From an uncultured Ruthenibacterium sp. (lineage in GTDB: Bacteria; Bacillota; Clostridia; Oscillospirales; Ruminococcaceae), in the NCBI RefSeq assembly GCF_963558415.1, contig NZ_CAUWGY010000002.1:5318-69317 (forward strand): a stretch of 64,000 bases of DNA, given 5' to 3'. The stretch's first letter is position 1. Every line of letters starts with the position of its first letter. Below are positions 2,056-22,826 of this stretch, piece after piece. Both the position numbers and the translations under genes were made by a program. The notes beneath the pieces are model-generated. The model was not told where the DNA came from, made no database searches, and saw only the letters and a program-made list of their open reading frames with translations.

Positions 2056-2814
2056 TTACTTTTTCTCCTTTCCCGCAGGAAGGTAAGCCTTCCAAAGCTT
2101 TCGTTTTCCACCGCGAAAACCGGCCTTTTCCAAAAGGCGCAGAGCTTGTTCCTCCTGCACATAGAGAAAAATGTCCTCATATCCCCGATCCGGTTTAGCC
2201 GCAAACTCCACTGCCGCCAACAAAGCCGCTGCCCCGTATCCTTTTTTGCGTTGATTAGGCGCTGTATAAAGCCCCCAAAGGCGAAATGCACTTCCGTATC
2301 CCATTCCAAAACAACAACTGACCGGAATCTCCGCGCGATTCAACGCAAAAAAGGCACGCGCTCCTGCCTTGATTTGGCGATTGGCCAACGCCAGGCCATC
2401 CGAGCCTGCATACTCCTTCACAAGTACTGCCAAATTGCCATCCAACGCCGAAGTGACCGTCCGGACCTGACATTTGCGCTGTACAAAAAACGGGCTGGGC
2501 TCGAGACACTGCGTCAAACGCCAACACTCTTGTTGTTCTATAACATAACCACGCCGCTGCAAAAGTGCTTGGCACTCCTCCAGAGGAATACTGTCCGGCG
2601 CGCTGTAAATACGACATACAGCACCAGCCTGCTTCAGCCGTGCCTCAATGGAATCAAGACTTTTATCCATGCCATTCGCTTGTTTTAAAACGCCCCAATT
2701 CGCCTTGCCGCAACCACAGGCATCTTCGGCCCAAAACACACGGTATTCATCTTTTTCCTCGTAGGAAAGATATTTTTTGGGGCAATGGATCTCATACCGT
2801 TCTCCGTCTGTCAT
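2056..2814 (-). CDS. GNAT family N-acetyltransferase with Cys-rich N-terminal extension
   Basis: C-terminal acetyl-CoA motif region (RKKGYGAAALLAAVEFAA ... LRLLEKAGF). 4-nt overlap with the upstream cytidylyltransferase gene (2811-2814). Confidence 0.7.
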   Translation of the reverse strand: MTDGERYEIHCPKKYLSYEEKDEYRVFWAEDACGCGKANWGVLKQANGMDKSLDSIEARLKQAGAVCRIYSAPDSIPLEECQALLQRRGYVIEQQECWRLTQCLEPSPFFVQRKCQVRTVTSALDGNLAVLVKEYAGSDGLALANRQIKAGARAFFALNRAEIPVSCCFGMGYGSAFRLWGLYTAPNQRKKGYGAAALLAAVEFAAKPDRGYEDIFLYVQEEQALRLLEKAGFRGGKRKLWKAYLPAGKEKK

Positions 2815-3581
2815 GGTTTATCCTCTCTGATATTGGTCTGTACCGTTCCAAAAGATGGATAGGCTCCATACAGATAGTGAGCAATGGCCTCCATCAGACG
2901 GTAATCCTCCTCGGAATCAATATCAATGATACCCGTATCAAACATCTCATACATGCCGATTTTTCCATCCCACAAAAAACCGGTCTCGTTTTCTAGTAAA
3001 AACTTACGCCCAAACACATAAATGGATGCGTTTAAATCAAACACCGGCGGTGTTTGCTGACGGGCCGTAAAATGATGATCGATCACACGTTTGGCATAGC
3101 CATTTTCCAATTTTGCCATATTAAAATACGGAGTGCGGCGAGACGGACAAACACTGAACACAAGGTCCAATTCCGGGCGGCTTTTCTTTAACGCATAAGC
3201 TCCCGACACATCCTGCTCCTGACGCAATGGACTTGTAATATCCAAATCAATCAGATTTTCATACTGCTTACCTTTGAGCGCCTCCATCTGCCGCAAACTG
3301 TGCTGATAGACCATCATCTTCGGCACCAAATCTCCGCACAACTCTTCCGGGCGATGCAAAACAGTCACTTCCGGATAGCATTTAGTGACCACATCAATCA
3401 ACAAATCGCTGTCCGTATTCAGGCACAAATCCACATTCAGCTCCGGATGCTGTTTCATAAATATCTGTGCCGCAGAAAGGCTGTAATAGCTCAGAGGATG
3501 TCCATCAAAAATTTTCAAATTTTTGTTTTTAAAGCCCTTGCTTCCAGCCCGACCACAAATGGTGATGAGTACATTTTCCAT
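2811..3581 (-). CDS. Acylneuraminate (nonulosonate) cytidylyltransferase family protein (NeuA/LegF-like)
   Basis: N-terminal ICGRAGSKGFKNKNL matches the CMP-sugar synthetase R-x-GSKG..KN motif. 256 aa. RBS GGGGGAG lies 7 nt upstream. Operon context with NeuB/NeuC. Confidence 0.8.
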   Translation of the reverse strand: MENVLITICGRAGSKGFKNKNLKIFDGHPLSYYSLSAAQIFMKQHPELNVDLCLNTDSDLLIDVVTKCYPEVTVLHRPEELCGDLVPKMMVYQHSLRQMEALKGKQYENLIDLDITSPLRQEQDVSGAYALKKSRPELDLVFSVCPSRRTPYFNMAKLENGYAKRVIDHHFTARQQTPPVFDLNASIYVFGRKFLLENETGFLWDGKIGMYEMFDTGIIDIDSEEDYRLMEAIAHYLYGAYPSFGTVQTNIREDKP

Positions 3582-3582
3582 G

Positions 3583-4509
3583 TCAAATCTCCCCCAACGT
3601 CAATTTCAAAACGTCCAGCGCCGTGTCTGGTGTGTTCACGCTTTCGCCAATACCGCTCTGGGCGTAATCCAGAAAATAGTCCATCTCTCGCAGATAACGT
3701 TGGTTTACCGGTTCATCCCAATGTTCCACAGTGCCATCTGCCAGTGTCAGCGTTCCCTTTCCGAAATCGGCGGTCACCGTACCATCTTTGCAGAAAAGCT
3801 CCAAACTGCGACGGTATTCTCGTCCAAAATAATCCAAATGGACCTCTACCAGCATAGAAGGATAGCGAGCAATATAAACCGATAAATCGTCCGAATCAAT
3901 TTCAAGATCACTGTATGTGCCTTTGAAATTGTACATTTCCAGCGGTTTTCCGAACAACTCCACCAGATAGTCCCATTCATGGATCAAATCAATGGTCACG
4001 CCGCCCCCCATATCGCGATGAGCAGAATATACAGTCCGATAATCTACCCCGGGGCGCCAATCCGGCAAGTAAGACGAACAAATGACCCGAGCCGAATAGG
4101 GTTTTAAGGACGCGAGCCGACGTTTCAGTGCCAGCATCACGCCACACCAGCGCATAGGCGCCGCCACGTAAGCTTTTTGACCCGGTGCAATGCATTCTGA
4201 TAGAGTGACATCTGTCCGGTCAAAAATAGGTTTTTCAATAAAGAGACTTTCCACCTTTCCACGCAACATACCCAGCGTAGAAAAGTGCAAACTGGTGGGA
4301 TTGGTGATAAACGCTGCATCAAAACGATCTTCCTCTTTCAGCGTGCGTACTTCCCCTGCCAGCAAGGATCGAACATCCTCGGGCAAAGGCCGGTCAGAAG
4401 ATCGCAGCGCCCAGGACTCCACCTGCAAACCTTTTTCCTGAGCGATTGTATTCAAATTTTTTAAATGCCTTGTTCCAATAGAACCAAGACCTACAAACAA
4501 AACTTTCAT
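3583..4509 (-). CDS. Gfo/Idh/MocA family oxidoreductase
   Basis: N-terminal Rossmann motif MKVLFVGLGSIGTRHLKNL. 308 aa. Confidence 0.75.
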   Translation of the reverse strand: MKVLFVGLGSIGTRHLKNLNTIAQEKGLQVESWALRSSDRPLPEDVRSLLAGEVRTLKEEDRFDAAFITNPTSLHFSTLGMLRGKVESLFIEKPIFDRTDVTLSECIAPGQKAYVAAPMRWCGVMLALKRRLASLKPYSARVICSSYLPDWRPGVDYRTVYSAHRDMGGGVTIDLIHEWDYLVELFGKPLEMYNFKGTYSDLEIDSDDLSVYIARYPSMLVEVHLDYFGREYRRSLELFCKDGTVTADFGKGTLTLADGTVEHWDEPVNQRYLREMDYFLDYAQSGIGESVNTPDTALDVLKLTLGEI

Positions 4510-4521
4510 CCTTTGCCTCTT

Positions 4522-5499
4522 TTACGCGTTTTCGATCCGCTCAATCAACTCCAGAACCGCTTTATCCTTTTCAAAGCTCCAGCGAGGTTGCTGCGTGCCG
4601 TTCAATACACCGAAAAAGTTTACGATTTCATCGCCATAAGCATTCTCCACAATGTTGTCCGAATAACGTGCATCATGCTCAAAGCTTTCATATGTTTGCA
4701 CGGATACTTTATCTTTGGTCGCAACGTCATACTTTGCCAATGTTTTGGGATTTCCTTCCCAGAACAAATGCAGTCCCTCGCCAAATACTTCAAAATTGCG
4801 CACCGCTTTGGGGCTGACCACGTCCACTGCCAAAATCCCCTTGACACCGCTCTCATGCCGCAATGTCACAAAATACGTATCCGGGTAATCGATTTCCAGA
4901 TTGCTGAGCTTATCCTTTTCCACGTACACATGTTTGACTGGTCCAAATGCGTCCAGCAGCCAAGGCAAATCAATCGCAAAGATTTCTCGAACACCGCCAG
5001 TGCGCTTATCGCCTACAAAAAAGTTTTTGTAGTTTTCCCAAGGATGCCAATCCGGCAAGTATTGGCCAATGTGATAAATATAGTTCACTGGTTTTCCAAA
5101 GTCCTGCACTTGCTTTTTAATATACTGCGTTTCCGCACGATACAACATAGTAGAAGACAAAAACAGAGGAACACCTTTTTCAGCCGCTTTGGCAATAAGA
5201 GCATCGTACCCGTCGTCTACCAAGTTCAATTCGGTAAAAATAGGCAATCCTGCATCCAGAAGCTCATCAATGATTCTCGCATGGGTAATGGGCGCAGTAC
5301 ATACAAATGCACAGTCTGGCTTTCCAGCATTCAGCGCCGCACCAATGCTCTCATAAGCCTGTATTCCCAATTCACCGGCCTCTTTGCGGCGAGATTCCGC
5401 CAAGTCCACACCCCAAACTTCCACGTCCGGTTGAACGCTCCGCAGAATCCGCGCTCTGCGTTTTCCCATGCTTCCCAGTCCAACGATCAAAACTTTCAT
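4522..5499 (-). CDS. Gfo/Idh/MocA family oxidoreductase (second paralogue)
   Basis: MKVLIVGLGSMGKRRARIL Rossmann start. 325 aa. RBS AGGGAG. Confidence 0.75.
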   Translation of the reverse strand: MKVLIVGLGSMGKRRARILRSVQPDVEVWGVDLAESRRKEAGELGIQAYESIGAALNAGKPDCAFVCTAPITHARIIDELLDAGLPIFTELNLVDDGYDALIAKAAEKGVPLFLSSTMLYRAETQYIKKQVQDFGKPVNYIYHIGQYLPDWHPWENYKNFFVGDKRTGGVREIFAIDLPWLLDAFGPVKHVYVEKDKLSNLEIDYPDTYFVTLRHESGVKGILAVDVVSPKAVRNFEVFGEGLHLFWEGNPKTLAKYDVATKDKVSVQTYESFEHDARYSDNIVENAYGDEIVNFFGVLNGTQQPRWSFEKDKAVLELIERIENA

Positions 5500-5524
5500 C
5501 TTTGCTCCCTGCTTTCCCGTGATA

Positions 5525-6151
5525 TCAAAGGGCGCTCAGCGCCTCATAAAAGCTTCCATACCCTGCAATGCTATAAATCAATCCCTCATCCGTCTGCGTA
5601 TAGACACATCCAGTATCAGGTGCAGCCAGAATACGCACTACACCGGATTCCGTAGTCAATGTGATTCGGAAAGTTTGCCCGTACCCCGCATAGGGAAGTT
5701 CTCTGCGCCAACTTGGAATACAGACAGTGTTTTGCAAAAGTTCTACAAGTTTTTGAGTCTGGTCGGTGGTCAATGTCACCGGCTTCTCCTTTTTTCCGGG
5801 GACACGACTGGACAAAGTGATACTTTCCACCTGGTCGGATTCTGCCAACGGAGTAGGCCAATAAGCCCACACACATAACCCCAACACCACTGCCAAGGCA
5901 CAGGCCAGGCTCACACTTCTGCGAAAAAACACCTTTTTTTTCTTTGGGTCTTTGTTACATTTGCGTCGAATCAGTTCCAAAATCAGAGTGACCATTAAAA
6001 CCACTGCTAAGCCTACCAAGGCAATGAGGCAAAGACGCAGTGCAATTGTGATCATACCGTCAAAAAACTCCGGTGCCTCCAACTCCTGGCGCCGCAAAAT
6101 CTTCCAGACCATGTTCCATATTTCTTCACATTTTGCAAAAAACGCACCCAT
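5525..6151 (-). CDS. Hypothetical membrane protein (2 TM helices plus extracytoplasmic C-terminal domain)
   Basis: 208 aa. Helices ITIALRLCLIALVGLAVVLMVTLILELI and SLACALAVVLGLCVWAYW are separated by a KKKK stretch. I recognise no family motif. Tightly packed between an oxidoreductase gene and NeuC. Confidence 0.5.
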   Translation of the reverse strand: MGAFFAKCEEIWNMVWKILRRQELEAPEFFDGMITIALRLCLIALVGLAVVLMVTLILELIRRKCNKDPKKKKVFFRRSVSLACALAVVLGLCVWAYWPTPLAESDQVESITLSSRVPGKKEKPVTLTTDQTQKLVELLQNTVCIPSWRRELPYAGYGQTFRITLTTESGVVRILAAPDTGCVYTQTDEGLIYSIAGYGSFYEALSAL

Positions 6152-6154
6152 GGG

Positions 6155-7321
6155 TCATTCTCCGTCGTAAAAAATTTTGGGTTTCCCACAGCGCGGGCCG
6201 GTCAAAAAGCGCTCCATTCCGCGCACCATTCGCCCACTTGTATCTCCGCCGTTGTACGGGCTGACCGTAGCTTTTGCCTGCTGTACAAAAGCGGGCGTCA
6301 AAGCTTTTTCAACAGCAGTCTGAATGGAAGCTGCATCTGCATCACAACAAATCACGTTTTGACATAAAATACGCCCCTCCTGCCTACGACCAATGTTCAC
6401 AGCAGGTATTCCCAGCGTCGGTGTCTCCACCACACCTGAAGAAGAGTTTCCAACGACAGCCGCACAATATTTCATGGCAGACAAATAACGCAATACGCCC
6501 AAACTGGTAAACGCAATATATTTATCCGGATGAATCGCACAAATCTCATCGATGCACCGATTGATTTCTGCGCCGCCTGCGTCGGCATTTGATTTTGTAA
6601 AAATGACATGTACAGAGAGTTTCTCCAATGCGGTCAAAAGTTGCTGGAACTGCCCTACCGCAGATGCACCACCCGCGGTCTCTGGATGATAGGTAACAAG
6701 AACATACGGTTTTTCCAAAGAAAAACCAATGCTCTTCTCCAATTCAGCCTTACTCATTAAGTGCATATTCCGCAGATTTTGATCGCCCAAACCACCCACA
6801 TTTTCTACCGTGGCGGGATCCTCTCCCATGCGGATGACTCGCTTTGCATACTCTTCACAAGCCGGAAAATGCAGACTGGCCATTTTGGTCAGGCAATGGC
6901 GGAAATAATCATCCGCCGCTCCATGTGTCACATCGCCTCCGCTGATGTGAATCAGCGGAATCTCCAAAAGTGCAGCCGCCTGGCCTACTGCAAAAATCTC
7001 GTACCGATCGCCCAACAAAAGAACTGCATCGGGCCGATGTGTGGAAAAGTAGTCCACAAACTGATCCAGGGTATAGGCCACCGTCTTGGCAGTGGCCAGT
7101 GCGCTTCCTGTGCCAAATTTTAAGATATCAATGCGCGCTTTTATCGGCGCCCCATCCGCTTCAACCTCGGATACTGTAGAACCGAACTCCGAGCTTAAAT
7201 GTGCGCCGGTCACTACTACCTGCGGGCACAGGATGTCGCTTTTTTCCATTGCTTTTACAACGCCTCGCAGAAGTCCCCACTCGGCGCGGGTTCCTGTCAC
7301 CACACAGACTGTTTTCTTCAT
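6155..7321 (-). CDS. neuC: UDP/GDP-N-acetylhexosamine 2-epimerase (hydrolysing), NeuC/LegG family
   Basis: Motifs VVTGTRAEWGLL, HISGGDVT and VGNSSSGVVE. Start trimmed to Met14 (MKKTV) behind RBS GAGGAGAG. Confidence 0.85.
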   Translation of the reverse strand: MKKTVCVVTGTRAEWGLLRGVVKAMEKSDILCPQVVVTGAHLSSEFGSTVSEVEADGAPIKARIDILKFGTGSALATAKTVAYTLDQFVDYFSTHRPDAVLLLGDRYEIFAVGQAAALLEIPLIHISGGDVTHGAADDYFRHCLTKMASLHFPACEEYAKRVIRMGEDPATVENVGGLGDQNLRNMHLMSKAELEKSIGFSLEKPYVLVTYHPETAGGASAVGQFQQLLTALEKLSVHVIFTKSNADAGGAEINRCIDEICAIHPDKYIAFTSLGVLRYLSAMKYCAAVVGNSSSGVVETPTLGIPAVNIGRRQEGRILCQNVICCDADAASIQTAVEKALTPAFVQQAKATVSPYNGGDTSGRMVRGMERFLTGPRCGKPKIFYDGE

Positions 7322-7331
7322 GGTGCTCTCC

Positions 7332-8327
7332 TCACAGTTCAATTTTCTCATCCTCGGCAAAATCGCGTTTGGCTGTCATGCCCAATACTTGATGCCACCG
7401 CATAGGACTGATGCCGTCACCTGGACGTTTGGTGGTGATATTCTGCTCGGTAAACACCTCGCCCTTGCGAATCGGCTTCGCAGCTACGATGCTTTTGCGG
7501 GCAATGGCTTTGTTCTTTGCCTCGCTCAGGCTAACATGTTTTTTTCCGTCTCCCAATGCCTTTTCCACATTGCGCACAGCACGGATCATAGCAGCCAGCT
7601 CATCCGGTTCCAAGCTGGCTTTATGGTCTGGACCTTCCATGTTGCGATCCAGCGTAAAATGTTTTTCAATCACACAGGCACCCAACGCAGCCGCTGCAAT
7701 ATCCGCCTCATATCCGGTGGTGTGATCCGAGTAACCCACGGGAAGACCGAACTGCTCGCGCAGATCGTCCATCGCCGTCAGATTTGCATCCTCAAAAGGT
7801 GTAGGATATTCGGTATTGCAATGCAACAGCGTAATTTGTTCTACCCCACCGTCTTCTAACACACTCAGCGCATCTTCAATTTCGCTCAGAGTGCTCATGC
7901 CCGTAGAAAGAATCACCGGCTTTTTGGTGGCCGCAATCCTTTCTAGGTACGGAAGATTTGTGATTTCACCCGACGGAATCTTCCATACGGACAGGTTCAG
8001 CGTATTCAAAAAGTCAATGCTCGGCAAATCAAACGGCGTGGAAAGGTATTCGATGCCAATTTCATCGCAATAATTTTTCAATTCTGCATGGCCGTCAAAT
8101 CCAAAGTGAATGCGCCGACACATATCAAGCTGGCTCTCACCTGCACCCGTCTGCTCCTTCTGATACTCTGCCTTCTCCGCAAACTTGCTGATAACAAGCT
8201 CCGGAATGGCTGTCTGGAACTTTACAATATCTGCACCGGCCTGCTTAGCCGCCAATGCCATTTTCTTTGCCAGTTCCAAATTTCCGTTATGGTTTACACC
8301 CGCTTCTGCGATGATGCAGATGGACAT
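7332..8327 (-). CDS. neuB: Nonulosonic acid synthase (N-acetylneuraminate synthase family, NeuB/LegI-like)
   Basis: IIAEAGVNHNGNLELAKKM N-terminal NeuB motif and a C-terminal SAF-like domain (AAKPIRKGEVFTEQNITTKRPGDGISP). Start trimmed to Met10 behind RBS AGGAGGAG. Confidence 0.9.
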   Translation of the reverse strand: MSICIIAEAGVNHNGNLELAKKMALAAKQAGADIVKFQTAIPELVISKFAEKAEYQKEQTGAGESQLDMCRRIHFGFDGHAELKNYCDEIGIEYLSTPFDLPSIDFLNTLNLSVWKIPSGEITNLPYLERIAATKKPVILSTGMSTLSEIEDALSVLEDGGVEQITLLHCNTEYPTPFEDANLTAMDDLREQFGLPVGYSDHTTGYEADIAAAALGACVIEKHFTLDRNMEGPDHKASLEPDELAAMIRAVRNVEKALGDGKKHVSLSEAKNKAIARKSIVAAKPIRKGEVFTEQNITTKRPGDGISPMRWHQVLGMTAKRDFAEDEKIEL

Positions 8328-8340
8328 AATCTTCTCCTCC

Positions 8341-10869
8341 TTACAATGGATCACGCTTTGTTTTTTTCCATAAAACTTGAGCCGTTAACAGCATCGCCGC
8401 TCCCAACAAGGAAACGACTATGCCCGCCGCCATTCCTGGGACCGCATAACGAAGTTCCACGCTATGAGTTCCTTGTTCCAATTGGACTGCACACAATCCG
8501 TCTGCCAAAGGCGTTATGGACGTGTTTTTTCCATCCACCGTACAACGAAGCGAGGAAGACCAAGGAATACTCATAAGATACAGATGCTCCCCATCGGCTT
8601 CCACCTGCGCACGAAAACGCCCGTTTTCAAGACTTGTCCATTCAATTCCATCCGACGCCGAAGAGGAGAACTGAGCCAACATTTCCGTATTGAATACACA
8701 CATACGAACATCGGTGAGCTCCATCTGATCGTACACCGGACAAACCTCTGCTGTCACTTGGTCGCCTGCTTCATAAGCGCCCAAGCACAAAACGCCCCAA
8801 GAATACCACTGTTCTGGGTTTTTATCCGTTACACTCTCTATCTGAACAGGCTTTGTTTTTTCTCCTGCCCATACAGCGTATACAATCCCATCCTTGGGTA
8901 CCTGCGCGGTAAAAGTTTGCTGTCCCTGCAAAGTTCCCAATGGTCCGGCTACATCCAACTCTTCAAAAAGCGAAACATCCGTTTGACCGCTGATCGCAGC
9001 AAACAGGGCGTTTTGAACATCAAAGAGATCGATGGGCTCCTCATAAGCAGGAATGTGAGCTTCCGCTGCGTATGAATCTGCAAAAAACCCTACAGGCAAC
9101 GCATATGGATTCTCCCAAACCAAAAGATCGGATTCACCTGCCTGTCCGACCAATTGGTAATGCGTTTGCACCCCATCCGCTTGTCCTGCAATCAAATAAC
9201 GTATTCCACACAGAGATTCTCCAAAGGCCGTACCACCGAAACGATACCCATTTACGTCGGAAAATCCCATCGCTCTCAGCCAATCGGTATTGGCGGAATC
9301 CTGTGTAGAACCGAAATGAGAAACACCATGATAACCCAAAAGCATCGGATCATTGTAACTGCGCTGAAATGTTTTTTCCATGCGCGCCCCTTTATCCAAA
9401 GCAGTCACATACGAAACCGCAGCAGATGTTTCATCGTAATAATCCAGATAATCCTGCCGGGGATACTGTTCAAATCGGCTCAGTACATCCGCTGCGTTTG
9501 CTGTCAATTCCAAAACGCATAGCGCTGCACAAACAACCAACGCACCCGCTCGCAAAATGCGCCGACGAGCGCCCAAACACAGCACACAACCAAACCCTAC
9601 GGCGCATAGGAGTGCCCCAACAAAAAACAATGTAGCCGTATACCACTCATTTCTTACAAAGAAACATACGGCCAGAAACGCAAGTCCTATCCCGCCTGCG
9701 CACAAAACGCGCCAAACGGTGAGCAACGGCGCCGCCAAAGCGCGAGCCGCCAAAAGACACATCCAAAAGGAAAATAAAAAGGAATTCCGATATGGGAACC
9801 ACACCGGTGGTTTCAGGCCATGAAACACGAGCATCAAATCCCGGCTGTACATGGAAAGGAATAAAACCACCAAAACAATGCCGGACCCCAACTTTTCCCG
9901 AAAAGGAATCCCCTTGGCCAAAAAATAAATGACTACCAAAACCACTACAAATGTTCCGCAGTACACATTTGGCAGGCCGGCCTCCACATTGCTCCAGTCA
10001 AAGTTGCCTGGCATCAGCCGATAAAAAAATTCACTCGCTTTAAAACTGGCCTCTCCCGTCAAGCCAAAATGTTCGGCCAATCCTTTATTTTGTCCAATGT
10101 CCAGCAAAGCGGGAATCAGCAAAAATGACGGCAAAGCCCCTGCGCACAAGGCTCCAAATCCAAATTGAAGACAACGGACAAATTTTTGTCCCGCATGGAT
10201 ACTGCGTGCAGCACACATCTCCCAAAAGAAGTACAGCACACAAAAAATGCATACCATATAGGCAATGTAAAAATTAGAAAAAATGGCCAAAGCCAAACTA
10301 AGTGCAAACACAAAAGGACGGCCTGTACAGCACAACTTCCAGATTCCATAACAAACCAAGGGCAATAAGAAAACCACGTCATGCCACATGATGTTCTGAG
10401 AATACACAAACACGTAAGCGCAAAAAGCGTAACACAACGCCGGAACAATCGCTCGATGCCGCAGGGACGAAAAACGACGCTCCAGAAAAAAGGCCATCGC
10501 GGTACCGCCCGCAGTTACCTTACAGAGCAACACCAGTGCGGCAAGCTCTGTATAATAACGGGGATCAAACAAAAGATACAGTACATTGAATAAACTAGAA
10601 CAGTAATAGGCCAGAATGCCCATCAGATTTCCGCCCAGGCCTTTTTCAAAACTGTATCCCCAACCAGAAAATCCTTCCAGCAAAGACCGGCGCATATGCG
10701 CAAAATAATTCAAGTACTGGCCGCCCAAATCTCCAGTCACCACTGTATTAGGGCCAAAAGGCCAAACGCCAAGAGCAATATATATAACCACCATCATAGC
10801 CGCACACAACAGTGCGGTTACAACAAGGATCTTTCTTTCGCTCAAAGCCTTTTTACCAATTGCATGCAT
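8341..10869 (-). CDS. YfhO family polytopic membrane protein (GT-C-like extracytoplasmic glycosyltransferase)
   Basis: About 842 aa. The N-terminus (WPFGPNTVVTGDLGGQYLNYFAHMRRSLLEG) is typical of YfhO, followed by over 12 TM helices and a large C-terminal soluble domain with a terminal TM. Start trimmed to Met14 behind AAGGAGAAG. Confidence 0.75.
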   Translation of the reverse strand: MHAIGKKALSERKILVVTALLCAAMMVVIYIALGVWPFGPNTVVTGDLGGQYLNYFAHMRRSLLEGFSGWGYSFEKGLGGNLMGILAYYCSSLFNVLYLLFDPRYYTELAALVLLCKVTAGGTAMAFFLERRFSSLRHRAIVPALCYAFCAYVFVYSQNIMWHDVVFLLPLVCYGIWKLCCTGRPFVFALSLALAIFSNFYIAYMVCIFCVLYFFWEMCAARSIHAGQKFVRCLQFGFGALCAGALPSFLLIPALLDIGQNKGLAEHFGLTGEASFKASEFFYRLMPGNFDWSNVEAGLPNVYCGTFVVVLVVIYFLAKGIPFREKLGSGIVLVVLFLSMYSRDLMLVFHGLKPPVWFPYRNSFLFSFWMCLLAARALAAPLLTVWRVLCAGGIGLAFLAVCFFVRNEWYTATLFFVGALLCAVGFGCVLCLGARRRILRAGALVVCAALCVLELTANAADVLSRFEQYPRQDYLDYYDETSAAVSYVTALDKGARMEKTFQRSYNDPMLLGYHGVSHFGSTQDSANTDWLRAMGFSDVNGYRFGGTAFGESLCGIRYLIAGQADGVQTHYQLVGQAGESDLLVWENPYALPVGFFADSYAAEAHIPAYEEPIDLFDVQNALFAAISGQTDVSLFEELDVAGPLGTLQGQQTFTAQVPKDGIVYAVWAGEKTKPVQIESVTDKNPEQWYSWGVLCLGAYEAGDQVTAEVCPVYDQMELTDVRMCVFNTEMLAQFSSSASDGIEWTSLENGRFRAQVEADGEHLYLMSIPWSSSLRCTVDGKNTSITPLADGLCAVQLEQGTHSVELRYAVPGMAAGIVVSLLGAAMLLTAQVLWKKTKRDPL

Positions 10870-10914
10870 TGCAAAAATCTTCTCCTTACGCCGGCCCCAT
10901 GTACACAACCGATG

Positions 10915-11958: not shown

Positions 11959-11981
11959 AAAAAATCCCCCGTGTAATTAAC

Positions 11982-13160
11982 TCAGGCCTCAGACAAATTC
12001 AAAAGCACATCCACCACTCGCTGAGCTTGCTCTTTCGTCAGGTTCGTAGAACATGGCAGATTCACAATGCGATCCAGATAGTGACGCGCCAAATCATCCC
12101 CATAGTGCTCATTGCGCGGATAATCCGCCTGATCCTGGATCAGACCCCAGATGGGACGAGTCTGAATCTTCTCTTGTGCCAAACGGCGAATGATTTCATC
12201 CCGGCGCAGCGGATGCTCATCGTACACATACAAGCTATAAAACCACTTATTGGAACGCACGCCATCCCGGAAAGGCATGATTCCGTAATGTCCTTTTCCG
12301 TTCAACGCTTCAAAATAGAAATCATACATTTCGTTTTTATGTTGGATAAAATCTTCCAACTGCTCCATCTGCGCCAAGCCCAATGCCGCCTGCAGATTGG
12401 TCAGACGATAATTGTATCCCACCTCATCGTGTTTATAATTCAGTTCGTCTGACTTTGCCTGTGTAGACAAATGTTTTGCATGTGCAAGCCACTCCGGATG
12501 ATTGGACACAACCATTCTACCAGATCCAGTGGTAATGATTTTATTGCCATTGAAGCTGTAAACACCAACATCTCCCATCGTGCCGGCGTACTTGCCTTTA
12601 AAAGGACCATCGGTGTAATAGGTTCCCAACGCCTCGGTAGCATCCTCAATCACAATCAAATTGTGATCGTGAGCTACTTTTAACAAGCCCGGCATATTGG
12701 CCATATTACCGAACACATGTACTACTACCATGGCTTTGATGTGAGCACCTGTACGTTTGTTGATGCAACGGCCATCCCGCATCTCTGAATTGGCTTCCAG
12801 ATACTGCTCGACCAAGGTGGGACAAATGCACAAGCTGTCACCGCATCCGATAAAAATCGGCTGTGCGCCTGCGTATCGAATCGGATTTACGGCTGCAATA
12901 AAAGTCAAGGTTGGAGCAATGACTTCATCGCCAGGACCAACGCCTGCCATCATCATAGCCAGATGGAGTCCCGACGTTCCTGAGTTGCATGCACAAGCGC
13001 CGGGCATTCCTACATAATCTGCCACAACCTGTTCGAACTGCGGCACCTTACTTCCGCCAGTAGACACCCACTCGCTGACGACTGCATCGTTCACGTATTC
13101 CTTTTCGCGCCCACCAAAATTTGGAACGGACAAGGGAATAAAATTCGGTTCCATTTTCAT
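11982..13160 (-). CDS. DegT/DnrJ/EryC1/StrS family PLP-dependent sugar aminotransferase (LegC/PglE-like)
   Basis: Motifs SGTSGLHLAMMMAGVGPGDEVI and YSFNGNKIITTGSG (PLP lysine). Start trimmed to MKMEPNF at 13160, giving an ATGA overlap with the upstream gene (13157). Confidence 0.85.
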   Translation of the reverse strand: MKMEPNFIPLSVPNFGGREKEYVNDAVVSEWVSTGGSKVPQFEQVVADYVGMPGACACNSGTSGLHLAMMMAGVGPGDEVIAPTLTFIAAVNPIRYAGAQPIFIGCGDSLCICPTLVEQYLEANSEMRDGRCINKRTGAHIKAMVVVHVFGNMANMPGLLKVAHDHNLIVIEDATEALGTYYTDGPFKGKYAGTMGDVGVYSFNGNKIITTGSGRMVVSNHPEWLAHAKHLSTQAKSDELNYKHDEVGYNYRLTNLQAALGLAQMEQLEDFIQHKNEMYDFYFEALNGKGHYGIMPFRDGVRSNKWFYSLYVYDEHPLRRDEIIRRLAQEKIQTRPIWGLIQDQADYPRNEHYGDDLARHYLDRIVNLPCSTNLTKEQAQRVVDVLLNLSEA

Positions 13161-13816
13161 TTTCCTCCCTTTTGCCGGACGGCGCACTGCAAACGCAGGA
13201 CCAGGGCGGCTGCATATTTCAAAATAACGGCACTCAATGCGGGTACTATCAAAAGGCTCAACATCCATACACGAGTCGGGGCAAACCAGCTCCAAAAACT
13301 ACGCGGTTCGTTGAATGTGATGCTTTCCACGTCAAACCGAAGCCCATAATAGATGCCCGGATCAATGCGCAAGCCATAAATATCTCCATAAGGAAGCGTA
13401 AAAGTATAACTGCCATCCTCTTCCTCATGGGCCCAAACTCGGCAACGAGCATCGAAATCTTCCATGCCCGGCCGCGGTTTATAAAACAGACAAAACTCAC
13501 CTGGTTCCATATTGGTAAAGTCAAATTTTACGGTCACTGTACGCACCGTCTTGGGTGAGTCTTTCATAACCATGCGCGGGTCCACACTGATGCTCACATA
13601 ACTGTCCGGCCCGGTTTGCTCCAAATCCGTCAATTCAAAATCACTCATGGACACTTCCATGGGTTCCAGATTTCCCATCGCACGCTGCACTCGATCTTCA
13701 GCGTAACCCAAAAGCGGCAACACCAAGCTGCCGGCCAAGAATACTGCGTAGCAAAAAGCCAACAGTTTTCGGTCATTTAGGAACAGGGCCGTTATCCATT
13801 GTCTTAATTTTTTCAA
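13157..13816 (-). CDS. Hypothetical bitopic membrane protein (N- and C-terminal TM, ~150-aa external beta-rich domain)
   Basis: 219 aa. TM helices LLAFCYAVFLAGSLVLPLLGY and VWMLSLLIVPALSAVILKYAAALV. 4-nt overlaps on both sides (13813-13816, 13157-13160). Confidence 0.5.
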   Translation of the reverse strand: MKKLRQWITALFLNDRKLLAFCYAVFLAGSLVLPLLGYAEDRVQRAMGNLEPMEVSMSDFELTDLEQTGPDSYVSISVDPRMVMKDSPKTVRTVTVKFDFTNMEPGEFCLFYKPRPGMEDFDARCRVWAHEEEDGSYTFTLPYGDIYGLRIDPGIYYGLRFDVESITFNEPRSFWSWFAPTRVWMLSLLIVPALSAVILKYAAALVLRLQCAVRQKGGK

Positions 13817-15885
13817 TCGCGGTATCCTCCTCCCTCAACTGGCTCAAAACGCATATCCGCACCTGTACCGACAATTCGGTACAACCTTGCTTCGCTTTCA
13901 AGCCCATCGGTAAACAGATCCGCATACGTCTCTATAAATACCTCGTCGATGTCATCCAAATACAATGCCGTGCAGCCAGTGGCCTCAAGATACTGGCACA
14001 GCACATCGGGCGTCAGCGTCTTACCTATAAATGGCTGTCGGTCCTCAACAGGATAATCGGAGGAAAACGCCCCTTCCCGAATTTCAAAATTCGATGACAA
14101 TTGACCGCCGCCAAAACTGTAATCCAACTGCACGTCCGGATAAAACTCATAATAATGAACGAACCAATTCTTTCCGTCGTCACTCTGACTGACGTAAAAT
14201 ACTCGATCCTCCGATGTCAAAAATGTTTTGGCTTGCTCGACCATGGAAATATCTCTCTTGCGTCCGGCAAAATACCCGTCCGAATAATCCACCACCGACA
14301 ACTGCGGCTGCACAAAGCTGGTAACTCTCCAGCCGCAGCCCAACGTCAGCGCCAGCAAAAAGCCCACGCCCACACTGGCTGGTTTCGCACGCTTGAGACT
14401 GCGCAATAAGAATGCAAGCGCAGCAATAAACCAACCGATGTAATAGGGATAAATATACCGGTTGTAGCTGCTCAACGCAGCGGCCTCGGCCTCTTTGAAC
14501 ACATACACATAGGTAAAGCCCGTAAAAATGTAAAACGCAGCAAAGCCCAGCACACTCCACAGTGTAAACCAGCCTACCGCCTTACGGCCCCGCTTATCTT
14601 CGTAAACAAAAGCAACTGCCAGAATCACCAGAATGACCAAGGTAACGATCAAGCCGGAACCATTCAGGTAACGACCCACTGTCCCTTCTTGGGAGCCCAC
14701 GCTGAACATGGTGAGTTTTGTGGAATAAAAGGCCTGGAACATGTTGCCCATTACTTGCACAAACTTCTCGCTTTTGTTCGGGCTGACAAGCTCTACTGCG
14801 CCAGTGACCACCATTTGCACCATACCCATGTTCTGCTCGCCGCCGATTTCAAATCGGTTGGCGCCGGTGACCGCTCCCATATGAGCAGCCCATCCGAAAA
14901 AGGCCGCCACCGGTGCAGCTACCATGGATACGATCCAACACCATTTGGCACGAACACCCCGCAGCCGGGCAAACCGCACCTCGCCTTTTTCCAAAAACAG
15001 GAGATCAAAACAGATCAAAGCCGCCGCAATCAGGCACAAAGCAAACCCCATGTCCTTGGAAATACACTCTACCGTTACACCCATTACCGCACACAGCAAC
15101 ACCATGGGCGACTTCTCTTTTGCCAGGAAATACACCACCAATGGCGCGCCGAACAACAATCCCATGGGAATATCCGCATAGCTGCACATATAAATGGGCG
15201 ATACATTGATATCCCTCTGGTACATCGTCATCAGATAAGGCACCATACACAGCAAAAGTGCTGTTGGGACCGCCAAATTCCAGCGCCGGCGTTCCAGTGT
15301 ATAAATTCCTGCCGCAAAAATAGCAAACATGAGAATGTCATAAGCTGCGAATACTTTCCAAGGTGCAAAAGAAGCGCCCAAAAACTGGAAGGCCTCATCT
15401 AGCATCACAAGGCCCGGCACATAGCTGGTAACCCGCAAACCTTGAGGATTATAAGTGTATAACTGTCCAGTGGACTTGACTACTTTGGGCGCAATTCCCC
15501 AAAAACTAAACTCATCCCACTCCATGAACAGCGGCTGACGAATAGCAAATACGACAATGACCGCAACGCTTGCCACCACAAAAAAAACAGTAGAGGGTGT
15601 AACAAGTTCTTTCCAGTGGATTTCACGACGTTTGCGTATCAGCCACACCAACGCCAGCGCCGCTGAGGCAAACCACAAAATACCTGCCCAAAACAACAGA
15701 TTTACACTGGCTAAAACACTGTACCAAAGAATGGTTGCATACAGCACGAACAGCGGGCTGATGCCCGCCGGAACGTTCCATTTTTTCGTGCAAAAAACAC
15801 ATAGACAAATCAACGCCAAAAAGGTGACCATACACCCGGCACCCTGCAAAAAAGCCTCCAAAAAAGCAACTCTCCTTCTCTTCAA
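13813..15885 (-). CDS. Large polytopic membrane protein of unknown family (GT-C-like topology)
   Basis: 690 aa. About 13 predicted TM helices over the first ~520 aa, then a ~170-aa soluble C-terminal domain. The start codon is uncertain (TTG at 15885 or ATG at 15831). Confidence 0.55.
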   Translation of the reverse strand: MKRRRVAFLEAFLQGAGCMVTFLALICLCVFCTKKWNVPAGISPLFVLYATILWYSVLASVNLLFWAGILWFASAALALVWLIRKRREIHWKELVTPSTVFFVVASVAVIVVFAIRQPLFMEWDEFSFWGIAPKVVKSTGQLYTYNPQGLRVTSYVPGLVMLDEAFQFLGASFAPWKVFAAYDILMFAIFAAGIYTLERRRWNLAVPTALLLCMVPYLMTMYQRDINVSPIYMCSYADIPMGLLFGAPLVVYFLAKEKSPMVLLCAVMGVTVECISKDMGFALCLIAAALICFDLLFLEKGEVRFARLRGVRAKWCWIVSMVAAPVAAFFGWAAHMGAVTGANRFEIGGEQNMGMVQMVVTGAVELVSPNKSEKFVQVMGNMFQAFYSTKLTMFSVGSQEGTVGRYLNGSGLIVTLVILVILAVAFVYEDKRGRKAVGWFTLWSVLGFAAFYIFTGFTYVYVFKEAEAAALSSYNRYIYPYYIGWFIAALAFLLRSLKRAKPASVGVGFLLALTLGCGWRVTSFVQPQLSVVDYSDGYFAGRKRDISMVEQAKTFLTSEDRVFYVSQSDDGKNWFVHYYEFYPDVQLDYSFGGGQLSSNFEIREGAFSSDYPVEDRQPFIGKTLTPDVLCQYLEATGCTALYLDDIDEVFIETYADLFTDGLESEARLYRIVGTGADMRFEPVEGGGYRD

Positions 15886-15891
15886 TGCCCA

Positions 15892-17553
15892 TCAAGGCAC
15901 AATGCACACCGGGCCGATGAAATAATGCTGCGCCAAAAGCACCGCGCTGAAAACAGCAAAAAAAGCGCACACTCCAAGCCCCAGGTGAAAAGCCTTTTTC
16001 CCACCGGCACGGGTCGTTTCGAACACATGACTCAAAAGCGCTGCTAGCAATATAAACAACATCAGGAATGCAGGCAACAAATAGCGGGCCTGTACCCCCA
16101 ACACGCGCACCATAGCCACAGGCGTATAAGTGATATACTGTGCAGCCAGCACGCCGCCGGTGTACAATACCGCCAAACCAAACAGTCCCAGAGACGGACA
16201 CAACGTCAAACTACTTTTTTCGTGAACGGAAAGAGCCGATGCAAAAGCCAACACCACAGGTGACAACATAGAAATAATTCCAATGTTGAGATCCATTGCG
16301 CCAAAACTGCCCAAAAGTCCCAAAAACAAGTTGTTTTCATACAGCGTTCCCAAAAAGACCATAGCCGTACGAGGCAGATTGTGCAGCACAAAGCGCAATT
16401 GTTCACCCATATTTACGCTTTCGCCCAACATACGTACTTCTTCATAATTCACACGGAATGCCTGCCCGTACCATTCCACACCGATGGTCACCAGCACAGC
16501 ACATACAAGCACCGCTGCGGCCACCTGCCATTTTTTCCATCGTGCTTTCCACACGTGCGCGGGCAAAATCAGCGGAATGACCACCCACAAAAGATTGATC
16601 CACGGCTTCACCGCATTCATCAAAACAAAAGCCGTCAAAAATACCGCCAAATCTTTGTTTCGAATCTCGTCCACACAAAAATAACTGGCCGTCAAATAAT
16701 AGCATCCCAGCATCAATGCATCGTAGTTACAGGATGCACCAATGTACAGGCTCAACGGCAATAACATTACCGCCAAGAACACCGGTTTATACCTTCTGCA
16801 GTTTCGCAGTGCCAACCAACACAAAAATGCATAAATCGCCAAATTGGCCAAACGACCTGCATAAAAACAGCCCAGCGCCCCAAAACCGATCATTCGTGCC
16901 AGCAGCATTGCCAACGCCTGGGGCAAATACGGCAACACTTGCTTGATCTGCGACTCTTTGACCACCGGAGCTCCGCCTTCGGTCTTCATTTGCTCATATC
17001 GCGCAAAATGATCCGCCAGGCTCACGGTTTGCCCATTTTGCTGCTTGATCGCATAGTTCTCACTGGACCCGCCACCGTTCACGTTACCCGAAGCGTCGTA
17101 CTCCAGCCAATAAGTGGTGTTTCCGTTGGTCCACGCACCAGGGAAGGCCGCCAAAAGCGCATCCACATCGGAACTGAACGTTCTCTCGCCGTCGAAATTC
17201 AAACGGCCCAAACTTACAGCATAAGCCCTCAGAAAATGCTCGCTCTCATCCGGTGCCTGCATAGGCGGATTGGCAAAGCAAAAACACAATCCGCACAAAA
17301 ACACCGCCAACGCAGCCCGTGCGTCAAAATTTTTAACAAATCGGATTACCAGCCACGCCGCCAGCACCACCGCCAGCGCCCCGGCGCACACGACCAAAGT
17401 CATGGGGAGGGGCGCCACCGCGTTGAACCCATAAAAAACTCGCCAATAATACACCACGCCAATGCCGCAAAGGACAGCAGCCAGCGCTGCCAAACACCAT
17501 CCCAATGCTCCATTCAGGCGCAGTTTATTCGGTTTCGCACCGTTTTGTCTCAT
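15892..17553 (-). CDS. DUF2142-like polytopic membrane protein (GT-C-like)
   Basis: 553 aa. The first external loop carries PPMQAPDESEHFLRAYAV, which I recall as the DUF2142 hallmark, followed by about 11 further TM helices. RBS GGAG. Confidence 0.55.
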   Translation of the reverse strand: MRQNGAKPNKLRLNGALGWCLAALAAVLCGIGVVYYWRVFYGFNAVAPLPMTLVVCAGALAVVLAAWLVIRFVKNFDARAALAVFLCGLCFCFANPPMQAPDESEHFLRAYAVSLGRLNFDGERTFSSDVDALLAAFPGAWTNGNTTYWLEYDASGNVNGGGSSENYAIKQQNGQTVSLADHFARYEQMKTEGGAPVVKESQIKQVLPYLPQALAMLLARMIGFGALGCFYAGRLANLAIYAFLCWLALRNCRRYKPVFLAVMLLPLSLYIGASCNYDALMLGCYYLTASYFCVDEIRNKDLAVFLTAFVLMNAVKPWINLLWVVIPLILPAHVWKARWKKWQVAAAVLVCAVLVTIGVEWYGQAFRVNYEEVRMLGESVNMGEQLRFVLHNLPRTAMVFLGTLYENNLFLGLLGSFGAMDLNIGIISMLSPVVLAFASALSVHEKSSLTLCPSLGLFGLAVLYTGGVLAAQYITYTPVAMVRVLGVQARYLLPAFLMLFILLAALLSHVFETTRAGGKKAFHLGLGVCAFFAVFSAVLLAQHYFIGPVCIVP

Positions 17554-17587
17554 CTAAATCTCCAAATAGTATTTATTTTGTTAATAA

Positions 17588-18571
17588 TTACAAACTGTAA
17601 ACACCGGTGCGGAAGGCATCCATATGCTCGCGAATCCAAGCGATTGTTTCGGCCAGACCCTCTTCAAAGGTGTAAGCCGGTTTCCAACCGGTCATCTGAC
17701 GCAGCTTGGTGGAATCGCCCAAAAGGCGGTTGACTTCGCTCTTCTCCGGACGCAGACGCTCAGATTCGCACACAATCTTTGCCTCGGGATTGATTTGGCG
17801 AATCAACTCATTGGCCAGATCTCCAATGGAAATTTCCTTACCTGTTGCAATGTTGATCTCCTGGCCAACAGCAGCCTCACAGTCGGCAATCGCCATAAAC
17901 CCTGCGGCCGTATCCTTCACATAGTTAAAGTCACGAGTGGGAGTCAGACTTCCCAACTTCAGCTCTTTCGCTCCGGACAAAAGCTGGGTAATGATGGTGG
18001 GAATGACCGCACGACCAGACTGACGAGGGCCATAGGTATTGAAGGGACGCACAATGGTGACCGGTAGTTCAAAAGAGCGGTAGAAGCTCTCGGCCAACCG
18101 GTCCGCACCAATCTTGGTGGCAGAGTACGGACTCTGTCCCTGGAAGGGATGATGCTCATCAATGGGCACGTACTGAGCGGTTCCATACACCTCACTGGTA
18201 GAAGTGACCAGCAAACGGCTTGTCCCCACGTCCCGAGCAGCATTCAGTACGTTCAATGTACCTTTGATGTTGGTATCTACATAGCTGTCCGGAGAATGAT
18301 AGCTGAAGGGAATGGCAATCAATGCCGCCAGATGATAGACGATCTCCTGCCCTTTCATTGCCGTGCGAACCCCGTTGGGATCGCGAATATCGCCCATAAA
18401 CACTTCGATCTCATTTTTGATTTCCGGTGCCAGCGTGTCCAGCCAACCCCAAGTGCCGAAGGAATTATAATAACAAAAGGCTTTTACCTTTTCGCCTTTA
18501 CGAACCAGTTCTTCCGTCAGATGGCTGCCGATGAATCCGTCGGCGCCCGTCACCATTACGGTATGTGCCAT
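17588..18571 (-). CDS. NAD-dependent nucleotide-sugar epimerase/4,6-dehydratase (SDR family, LegB/PglF-core-like)
   Basis: VMVTGADGFIGSHL (GxxGxxG) and SPYSATK (YxxxK). Start trimmed to MAHTV behind AAGGAGAGG. First gene of the minus-strand operon. Confidence 0.85.
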   Translation of the reverse strand: MAHTVMVTGADGFIGSHLTEELVRKGEKVKAFCYYNSFGTWGWLDTLAPEIKNEIEVFMGDIRDPNGVRTAMKGQEIVYHLAALIAIPFSYHSPDSYVDTNIKGTLNVLNAARDVGTSRLLVTSTSEVYGTAQYVPIDEHHPFQGQSPYSATKIGADRLAESFYRSFELPVTIVRPFNTYGPRQSGRAVIPTIITQLLSGAKELKLGSLTPTRDFNYVKDTAAGFMAIADCEAAVGQEINIATGKEISIGDLANELIRQINPEAKIVCESERLRPEKSEVNRLLGDSTKLRQMTGWKPAYTFEEGLAETIAWIREHMDAFRTGVYSL

Positions 18572-18619
18572 ACTACCTCTCCTTATCGTGCATGGTTCAA
18601 CATGCAATACTCGGTTATT

Positions 18620-18648: not shown

Positions 18649-18687
18649 TAAAAGTTCACCTGTCCACCCCAACTCAACGTCCTTTGC

Positions 18688-18716
18688 TTTACAAACAAGC
18701 TCTTTACATCTATAAT
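18688..18716 (+). promoter_or_regulatory. Candidate sigma-A promoter of the MBOAT arm
   Basis: TTTACA-17 nt-TATAAT, 46 nt upstream of ATG 18762. A small 5'-UTR hairpin follows (TTGGCC-ttgtgt-GGCCAA). Confidence 0.5.
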
Positions 18717-18761
18717 AATAAATTGGCCTTGTGTGGCCAAACCAGACAAAGGAGAGCTTTC

Positions 18762-20327: not shown

Positions 20328-20339
20328 GGAGGAGCGCCT

Positions 20340-22736: not shown

Positions 22737-22826
22737 ATGCGGACTTGTTTTTCCGACCATAAGAAAGGTATAATAAAGCAGGAGTTGCCGATTGGGGCAG
22801 CTCACGGGAAAGCGAGGTTTTCAACA

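Follow-up and report, generated by a model that had tools for sequence, protein, structure and literature searches.

A predicted legionaminic-type operon of gut Ruminococcaceae-like bacteria encodes two Gfo/Idh/MocA proteins and no PtmA-like dehydrogenase

Introduction

Legionaminic-type sugars mimic the sialic acid of the host and affect immune and phage recognition. PtmF, an oxidoreductase of 326 aa, occurs in the legionaminic acid (Leg) clusters of Plesiomonas, V. fischeri, E. coli (as WeiH) and C. coli, where it adjoins PtmE, LegF and PtmA (PMC4481668, Table 5). Here, we analysed a related operon within a stretch of 64,000 nucleotides, hereafter the window, from an uncultured Ruthenibacterium sp. 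(contig NZ_CAUWGY010000002.1, positions 5,318 to 69,317). This operon encodes two tandem proteins of the Gfo/Idh/MocA oxidoreductase family, termed Ox1 and Ox2, next to a putative CMP-nonulosonate synthetase, and we asked what role this pair might play.

Precedents for epimeric nonulosonates have been described. The antigen of E. coli O61 contains a derivative of 8-epi-legionaminic acid (8eLeg), 8eLeg5Ac7Ac (PMC3628348), and this sugar of O61 also appears in the reference list of PMC7685785. In A. baumannii, the gene set lgaABCDEF/elaABC leads to 8eLeg and lgaABCDEFG leads to Leg, ElaA being a putative oxidoreductase (PMC9676051). The conversion of pseudaminic acid (Pse) into its 8-epimer (8ePse) by EpaA, a fusion of a cytidylyltransferase and a reductase, together with EpaB, a short-chain dehydrogenase/reductase (SDR), has been demonstrated experimentally (PMC12053666).

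Among Gram-positive bacteria, Enterococcus faecium is the only one credited with Leg in a 2025 review on gut surface polysaccharides (PMC12413058). The literature we searched yielded no nonulosonate chemistry for the lineage of our host, and the search for Ruminococcaceae returned just mentions of pathway abundance. The operon described here is conserved in abundant gut commensals, namely Gemmiger formicilis, Ruthenibacterium lactatiformans, Subdoligranulum variabile and Allofournierella massiliensis.

Results

A legionaminic-type core pathway in a single operon

The minus strand of the window from about 18607 to 652 forms a single, tightly packed operon with intergenic gaps of −29 to +34 nt. 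The host genome comprises 2.7 Mb in 170 contigs. A first-pass annotation made from the letters of the window had already located the pathway genes in one operon, and our analysis reproduced their positions. It had also recognized look-alikes of PtmE, LegB, LegC, LegG, LegI and LegF, a view borne out by family scores, domains and sequence identities. We assigned the pathway families by the curated cut-offs of NCBIfam, which LegB, LegC, NeuC and NeuB pass.

The first gene of the operon encodes the NAD-dependent 4,6-dehydratase LegB (17588–18607, with a likely ATG start at 18571), which scores 514.7 bits with TIGR04180 (cut-off 475) and shares 60% identity with the annotated LegB of a plasmid of Rhizobium sp. 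WL3. The pyridoxal phosphate (PLP)-dependent aminotransferase at 11982–13295, with a probable start at 13160, belongs to the LegC family, with 442.1 bits for TIGR04181 (cut-off 420) as against 229 bits for the PseC model, under its cut-off of 423, and the homologue in the E. coli O61 cluster is 38% identical. The PtmE-like sugar-1-phosphate nucleotidyltransferase (10915–11958) combines CBS and NTP_transferase domains and shares 32% identity with the nucleotidyltransferase of the O61 cluster (E 3e-50) and 34% with the Rhizobium homologue, the full-length comparisons with cluster homologues giving 30–34%.

The NeuB/LegI-type nonulosonate synthase (7332–8354) reaches 493.4 bits with TIGR03569 (cut-off 399.65) as opposed to 316 bits with the PseI model, under the cut-off of 340, and is 50% identical to the cluster synthases of both E. 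coli O61 and Rhizobium. The NeuC/LegG-type hydrolysing 2-epimerase (6155–7360; TIGR03568, 409 bits, cut-off 235.9) shares 43% identity with its O61 homologue. The LegF-like CMP-nonulosonate synthetase (2811–3581) is a divergent cytidylyltransferase: it matches CTP_transf_3 weakly (24.2 bits, cut-off 22.6), scores 62 bits with the PseF model, below the cut-off, and is 34–35% identical to its counterparts in the E. coli O61 and Rhizobium clusters.

These assignments indicate that the operon encodes a C. jejuni-type (PtmE/LegB/LegC), presumably GDP-linked route to a CMP-activated sugar of the legionaminic family. The earlier proposal of a Leg-type pathway in the GDP-linked style thus holds, with the Pse models for aminotransferase and synthase staying below their cut-offs. 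Judging from family membership, PtmE would make an NDP-hexosamine, which LegB would dehydrate and LegC would aminate. The 4-N-acetylation would be carried out by an acetyltransferase encoded outside the operon, probably a PglD-like one. NeuC would then hydrolyse and 2-epimerise the product, NeuB would condense it with phosphoenolpyruvate, and the LegF-like enzyme would activate the resulting sugar with CMP.

The usual SDR is missing and Ox1 occupies its place

The O-antigen cluster of E. coli O61 came to light through a weak match to neuB at the DNA level. This cluster contains a PtmE-like nucleotidyltransferase, a Gfo/Idh/MocA protein of 327 aa, a cytidylyltransferase, an SDR annotated as oxidoreductase, and two acetyltransferases. 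On the Rhizobium plasmid, LegB, LegC, NeuC, NeuB, an acetyltransferase and a nucleotidyltransferase are followed by a triad of Gfo/Idh/MocA protein, cytidylyltransferase and SDR, and the same triad was found on a plasmid of Pseudohalocynthiibacter and in an unrelated Clostridia genome (G032). Together with the published occurrences of PtmF (PMC4481668, Table 5), these triads identify one Gfo/Idh/MocA protein as a regular part of this type of Leg cluster.

The SDR of the triad has no counterpart here. No PtmA-like SDR was found in the operon, nor in 35 plus 80 related loci, and the SDR matches in the whole host genome were only generic, with 28–32% identity. The real anomaly of the locus is the missing SDR (PtmA), with Ox1 present in its usual place. 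The first-pass annotation had assigned both oxidoreductases to none of the core pathways. However, neither protein is foreign to the pathway: only Ox1 is unusual, Ox2 being a PtmF-type protein and as such a standard member of Leg clusters; that a tandem Gfo/Idh/MocA pair departs from the textbook arrangement is correct.

Two samples define the distribution of the locus. The 80 related species loci are those of the 80 closest relatives in a scan of genome contigs, and the family sample comprises 150 genomes, 35 cluster-positive and 115 cluster-negative, in which the 35 loci were examined. The block of NeuC, Ox1, Ox2 and LegF is kept in 78 of the 80 species loci, including those of Ruthenibacterium, Gemmiger, Allofournierella and Subdoligranulum. 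The nearest named relatives at the locus are Owariibacterium komagatae (83% identity in Ox2) and Ruthenibacterium lactatiformans (78%), followed by Allofournierella, Gemmiger, Subdoligranulum and some metagenome-assembled genomes of Faecalibacterium. Ox2 orthologues occur in 35 of the 150 genera sampled in the family and in 2 of about 190 other genomes sampled in the class. The combination of two Gfo/Idh/MocA proteins, one PtmF-type and one Ox1-type, without an SDR makes this family unusual and is widespread in gut Ruminococcaceae-like bacteria.

Ox2 resembles the PtmF-type proteins

Ox2 (3583–4509; PF01408) shares 29% identity with the Gfo/Idh/MocA protein of the E. coli O61 cluster (E 3e-24) and 30% with that of Rhizobium. 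Its motifs are G7-x-G9-x-x-G12, E92-K93-P94, GGGV followed by D174 and H177, and YLPDWRP. The canonical active-site motifs of the family (GxGxxG, the EKP lysine and D174/H177) are invariant in the 26 orthologues aligned, and the EKP and GGG..D..H motifs are common to Ox2 and the PtmF-type proteins.

We constructed a maximum-likelihood tree of Ox1 and Ox2 rooted on six other Gfo/Idh/MocA proteins of the same genome. The 36 Ox2 orthologues fall in one clade with a support of 100 in the Shimodaira-Hasegawa-like approximate likelihood ratio test (SH-aLRT), sister to the PtmF-type protein of the Clostridia genome G032 (90). Both lie within a wider group with the proteins of E. coli, Rhizobium, Pseudohalocynthiibacter and Halorussus (83). 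Judged by its motifs and its placement in the tree, Ox2 is an orthologue of the PtmF-type Gfo/Idh/MocA protein. Searches of solved structures with Ox1 and Ox2 matched just distant members of the Gfo/Idh/MocA family, and the prediction of an Ox1–Ox2 complex, with scores of 0.00, 0.81 and 0.00, gave no verdict either way.

Ox1 is part of a large subfamily in which the active site is remodelled

Ox1 (4522–5499; PF01408, PF22725) is a protein of the Gfo/Idh/MocA fold from what we call the YLPDWHPWE subfamily. Its identity to the Gfo/Idh/MocA proteins of E. coli O61 and Rhizobium amounts to 23–24% and that to Ox2 to 25%. Ox1 keeps the Rossmann loop GLGSMGKRR (GxGxxG) and the YLPDW signature it shares with Ox2. 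E90-L-N92 (ELN) stands in the position of EKP, and RTGGxREI takes the place of the catalytic histidine motif. None of the 31 Ox1 orthologues aligned has the EKP lysine or the histidine of the D..H motif, and in all of them the polar residues H143, H152, E155, R171 and E172 are invariant. The same remodelled motifs were present in all aligned members of at least 290 aa (about 110) among the best 150 Ox1-type representatives of the library. Over the same genomes, mean column identity was 65% for Ox1 and 59% for Ox2.

In the tree, the 35 Ox1 orthologues group by themselves (SH-aLRT 100) at the end of a very long stem. The structure model of Ox1 is confident, with a predicted local distance difference test score (pLDDT) of 93.5, adopts the Gfo/Idh/MocA fold and resembles sugar dehydrogenases of the family, among them WlbA, GnnA, GenD2 and inositol dehydrogenases, at 14–22% identity. 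A profile built from the Ox1 orthologues retrieved at least 305 representative clusters at E ≤ 1e-30, and all of the best 150 representatives scored far higher with this profile than with that of Ox2. We considered whether Ox1 could be a recent, degenerate duplicate of Ox2 and rejected this origin, Ox1 being part of a large independent subfamily with conserved residues of its own.

The wider subfamily is tied to cytidylyltransferases. About 14 of the best 150 representatives are 560–613 aa long, and 8 of the 10 length outliers scanned were fusions to CTP_transf_3, in both domain orders, so that there are at least eight such fusions. Where the genomic context of unfused Ox1-type genes was examined, their neighbours were NeuB, NeuC and cytidylyltransferase genes, in many cases together with one for a class-III aminotransferase. 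One locus (L146) holds an Ox1-type gene together with a cytidylyltransferase, a PtmA-like SDR with 35% identity to the Rhizobium SDR, and a PtmE-like gene. Since Ox1-type proteins stand beside or are fused to the cytidylyltransferase elsewhere, the Ox1-type and PtmF-type proteins appear to be alternative occupants of one slot in other lineages. From these profiles and contexts, we regard Ox1 as a member of a large, unstudied Gfo/Idh/MocA subfamily linked to nonulosonate clusters and having a remodelled active site.

Outside the family, Ox1-type or related Gfo/Idh/MocA genes of nonulosonate clusters are followed by class-III aminotransferases in several loci (L143:9001–12065, L145, L146:4109–7145, L147 and L050:8971–12221). 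The contig of L143 also carries STT3 and F420-ligase genes and is possibly archaeal. This gene order hints at a route in which oxidation followed by amination would introduce an extra amino group into the sugar.

A lineage-specific GNAT and a candidate acetyltransferase outside the operon

The last pathway step to be placed is the 4-N-acetylation. The scans of domains and families detected no hexapeptide acetyltransferase in the operon, as the first-pass annotation had noted when it found no left-handed-helix acetyltransferase there. It had named the GNAT acetyltransferase (2056–2814; PF00583), which overlaps legF by 4 nt, as the only candidate for LegH, and the comparison with related genomes speaks against this claim. 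The acetyl-CoA motif Q/R-x-x-G-x-G/A of the GNAT is intact. The protein matched no NCBIfam family at E ≤ 0.01, PseH included, and a profile search of solved structures returned generic matches to GNAT motif A at E ≥ 0.003, none of them named PseH.

Its homologues amount to about 10 clusters among 5.8 billion proteins and always directly follow legF. They occur in 14 of the 80 species loci, all from the Ruthenibacterium/Owariibacterium lineage, and in 1 of the 35 loci of the family sample. A WeiJ-like hexapeptide acyltransferase gene separates Ox1 from Ox2 in 6 other loci of the 80, and the remaining 60 lack both acyltransferase genes. The acyltransferase slot around Ox1, Ox2 and LegF therefore varies by lineage, filled by a GNAT, by a hexapeptide type or by none. 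This narrow distribution marks the GNAT as an accessory acyltransferase of one lineage and not as a general substitute for LegH. It may act on GDP-GlcN, in a step of the GlmU/WeiJ type, or may add a variant acyl group.

PglD-like candidates for LegH lie elsewhere in the genome. Another contig (C19; L009:8683–10840) encodes a 176-aa PglD_N–hexapeptide acetyltransferase in tandem with a 571-aa fusion of PglD_N and an APH phosphotransferase. With the NeuD model TIGR03570, these proteins scored 105–132 bits, below the cut-off of 160.8. In the family sample, homologues of these PglD-like proteins were found in 14 of the 35 cluster-positive genomes and 3 of the 115 cluster-negative ones. Of the 17 genomes with an Ox2 closest to that of the window, 14 have them. 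These counts overstate their independence because the genomes are related. The legH gene of C. jejuni likewise lies outside the leg cluster (bioRxiv 10.64898/2026.04.20.719630). As side observations, the PglD_N pair has a Cys/Met-type PLP enzyme and an ABC transporter as neighbours, and its homologues are often the fused form of 550–645 aa and unlinked to the Leg cluster.

Membrane proteins and the divergent arm

The remaining genes of the operon encode membrane proteins. Behind LegB lies a polytopic protein of the DUF2142 family (15892–17553; PF09913, E 1.8e-37), which is a gene of the context with no part in sugar synthesis, followed by a 690-aa polytopic and a 219-aa bitopic protein (13157–15885) that matched no family and of which weak homologues recur in related clusters. 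A membrane glycosyltransferase-like protein of the YfhO family (8341–10908; PF09586, E 4e-153) varies in position among relatives and lies within 8 kb in 14 of the 80 loci. The slot between NeuC and Ox1 is also variable: in the window it holds a membrane-anchored protein of 208 aa (5525–6151) without a family match, found in 6 of the 80 loci, and in Allofournierella massiliensis a 370-aa metallophosphoesterase (Metallophos; L011:8834–9946). We considered this 208-aa open reading frame, the only one without an assignment in the block of soluble enzymes, as a hidden hexapeptide acetyltransferase and discarded it, as it is membrane-anchored and lacks a family match.

Four further genes point away from the operon on the plus strand. 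An MBOAT O-acyltransferase (PF03062, E 9e-16) and a 348-aa partner occupy 18684–21386, and this pair co-occurs in some related loci. A candidate nonulosonate glycosyltransferase of 442 aa (21408–22736) scores 249 bits with TIGR04396, a model for surface carbohydrate biosynthesis (cut-off 125), and 91 bits with the BFO_1060-family glycosyltransferase domain, below that cut-off. The 401-aa protein at 22737–23942 is a WbuX/PtmG-like N-acetyl sugar amidotransferase (TIGR03573, 345 bits, cut-off 203), from which an acetamidino group can be predicted. The TIGR04396/BFO_1060-type and WbuX-type proteins are highly conserved, with up to 82% identity, and in distant relatives the TIGR04396/BFO_1060-type gene directly follows legF, so both proteins belong functionally to the sugar system. 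The divergent arm would thus add the acetamidino group by the amidotransferase, transfer of the nonulosonate by the candidate glycosyltransferase and O-acylation by the MBOAT protein.

Two further observations concern genes beyond the sugar operon. A pair of ThrE/ThrE_2 exporter-like genes (209–1443) lies directly downstream of the sugar operon, and 56 of the 80 species loci have a ThrE homologue no farther than 8 kb from legF. Another contig (C6; L010:2664–9202) carries a second surface-glycan cluster with GT8, MptE-like/DUF115 (a weak PseD/Maf-like match), GT2, Wzy_C and flippase-like genes, as well as a second cytidylyltransferase scoring 82 bits with the PseF model, below the cut-off. This second cluster may use a CMP-nonulosonate.

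Discussion

Taken together, we favour the reading of the locus as a C. jejuni-type Leg operon in which Ox1 and Ox2 form a late redox pair, the 4-N-acetyltransferase is encoded outside the operon and the GNAT is accessory, to which we give a probability of about 0.55. In this scheme, Ox1 and Ox2 would act with the CMP-synthetase on the nine-carbon sugar: one oxidoreductase would oxidise a hydroxyl, and the keto group so formed would be reduced by the other. An epimer of the 8-epi-legionaminic kind would be the most likely product. We favour such a late role because of the fusions of Ox1-type proteins to cytidylyltransferases and the precedents of Ela, O61 and Epa. The presence of the triad in the cluster of E. 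coli O61, which produces 8eLeg, suggests that the product may be epimeric, and a second E. coli cluster (L008) with the same core and a product that is not known is without the triad.

Several points weigh against this reading. The loss of the canonical catalytic lysine and histidine means that a redox activity of Ox1 is not assured. In the tree, Ox1 joined the PtmF group with weak support (SH-aLRT 63). The assignment of ElaA, ElaB and ElaC as Gfo/Idh/MocA protein, cytidylyltransferase and SDR is our inference from gene counts, and the orthology of Ox2 to PtmF of C. jejuni and ElaA of A. baumannii is drawn indirectly, by way of the homologues in E. coli O61 and Rhizobium together with published identities. 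The co-occurrence counts come from related genomes and are not independent. C. jejuni and C. coli have the triad, yet the sugar reported from them is Leg and not 8eLeg. The in vitro pathway of C. jejuni of Schoenhofen et al. in 2009 reportedly placed PtmF and PtmA early, in the conversion of fructose-6-phosphate to GlcN-6-phosphate. To our knowledge, that study is the sole biochemical assignment of PtmF and PtmA. Following this study, ptmA has been counted in the first, GDP-sugar segment of the pathway (PMC4481668).

The last of these points lead directly to a different proposal, namely that Ox1 and Ox2 together do the job of PtmF and PtmA in supplying GlcN-6-phosphate, hence GDP-GlcNAc, and that the product is ordinary Leg with an acetamidino group. 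That Ox2 is a PtmF orthologue encoded in one operon with a PtmE-like nucleotidyltransferase, and that LegB and LegC belong to retaining, Leg-specific families, agrees with such an early role. However, the domain scans detected neither a glutaminase nor a sugar-isomerase domain in Ox1 or Ox2, and the fusions of Ox1-type proteins are to CMP-synthetases and not to PtmE-like enzymes. The triad always brackets the cytidylyltransferase, in E. coli O61, Rhizobium and Pseudohalocynthiibacter alike; it is present in the one 8eLeg cluster examined (O61) and absent from L008 and from the Leg module of A. baumannii (PMC9676051, PMC3628348). We therefore consider the early role the less likely of the two. 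The first-pass annotation had gone further in another direction and proposed that the GNAT replaces LegH, that both oxidoreductases are foreign to known pathways and that an unknown nonulosonate is made. The translational coupling of the GNAT to legF, its intact acetyl-CoA motif, a position kept across homologues of 38–76% identity and an operon without a hexapeptide acetyltransferase are compatible with this proposal. Its weakness is that the GNAT is absent from 66 of the 80 otherwise equivalent loci, that six loci have the WeiJ-like enzyme between Ox1 and Ox2 instead, and that the PglD-like acetyltransferases co-occur with the cluster. The GNAT carries no PseH-like or other sugar-acetyltransferase signal, and Ox2 is a component of a known pathway. 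We regard this version as improbable.

The remodelled active site of Ox1 could also mean that it is catalytically dead and serves Ox2 or the CMP-synthetase as a scaffold or regulatory partner, as no orthologue has kept the lysine or the histidine. Yet Ox1 is conserved at least as well as Ox2, the Rossmann loop is kept, and other polar residues are invariant. Elsewhere, the only Gfo/Idh/MocA domain that adjoins the cytidylyltransferase or is fused to it is of the Ox1 type, in keeping with a functional enzyme whose site has been remodelled. A dead Ox1 is thus very improbable in our opinion. Returning to the late redox pair, we tentatively propose, as a possibility with the odds against it, that the Ox1 subfamily consists of uncharacterised nonulosonate modifiers acting at the CMP-activation step, and that Ox1, paired with a PtmF-type enzyme in Ruminococcaceae-like commensals of the gut (Gemmiger, Ruthenibacterium, Subdoligranulum and Allofournierella), gives rise to an epimeric Leg-type sugar, be it the 8-epimer or an undescribed isomer. 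Action at the CMP-activation step would explain the recurrent fusion of Ox1-type proteins to CMP-synthetases. If this proposal were true, the assignment of PtmF and PtmA of C. jejuni to the synthesis of GlcN-6-phosphate would need to be revisited.

The layout with two Gfo/Idh/MocA proteins and no SDR, as well as the fusions with cytidylyltransferases, bear on whether such an oxidoreductase pair serves early supply or sets the configuration at C8 late. Several carrier species have been cultured, so the role of the pair is directly testable.

Comparison with known systems

In structure, the Ox1 model comes closest to the sugar 3-dehydrogenases WlbA, GnnA and GenD2 of the Gfo/Idh/MocA family, with TM-scores of about 0.72–0.81. 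As in their case, an aminotransferase gene often comes after the Ox1-type gene in other lineages. These enzymes have the EKP lysine and catalytic histidine that are missing from Ox1, and their identity to it is only 14–22%.

The EpaA/EpaB system of A. baumannii prophages offers a likeness in arrangement, as a cytidylyltransferase is coupled, physically or genetically, to two oxidoreductases that alter the configuration of a nonulosonate (PMC12053666), and Ox1-type domains too occur fused to cytidylyltransferases. The oxidoreductases of EpaA/EpaB are an aldo-keto reductase and an SDR and act on Pse, whereas the window encodes two Gfo/Idh/MocA proteins. The window resembles the elg cluster of E. 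coli O61 and the lgaABCDEF/elaABC genes of A. baumannii in its PtmE-like gene and in having the cytidylyltransferase next to a Gfo/Idh/MocA gene, which in A. baumannii would be elaA. The O61 cluster comprises a PglF-type dehydratase, LegH-type and WeiJ-type acetyltransferases within the cluster, and an SDR. In contrast, the window has LegB, no hexapeptide acetyltransferase in the cluster and Ox1 in the place of the SDR.

The closest comparison is with the ptm-leg locus of C. jejuni and C. coli (Cj1324–Cj1332), which encodes PtmG, LegI, LegG, PtmE, PtmF, PtmB/LegF and PtmA, with LegB and LegC, and has legH elsewhere. LegB, LegC, the NeuC-type and NeuB-type enzymes, the PtmE-like and PtmF-type proteins, the CMP-synthetase and the WbuX/PtmG-like amidotransferase are common to the window and the C. 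jejuni locus. In C. jejuni, the 4-N-acetyltransferase lies outside the cluster (bioRxiv 10.64898/2026.04.20.719630), as it probably does in the host of the window. The window differs in having no PtmA-type SDR and a second Gfo/Idh/MocA protein, Ox1 of another subfamily, upstream of Ox2. The C. jejuni locus stands in a flagellar (Maf) context, whereas that of the window belongs to a Gram-positive host and is accompanied by YfhO, DUF2142 and MBOAT membrane genes. With the amidotransferase and the other genes of the divergent arm included, the locus is therefore nearer to the ptm region of C. jejuni than the first-pass annotation had noted.

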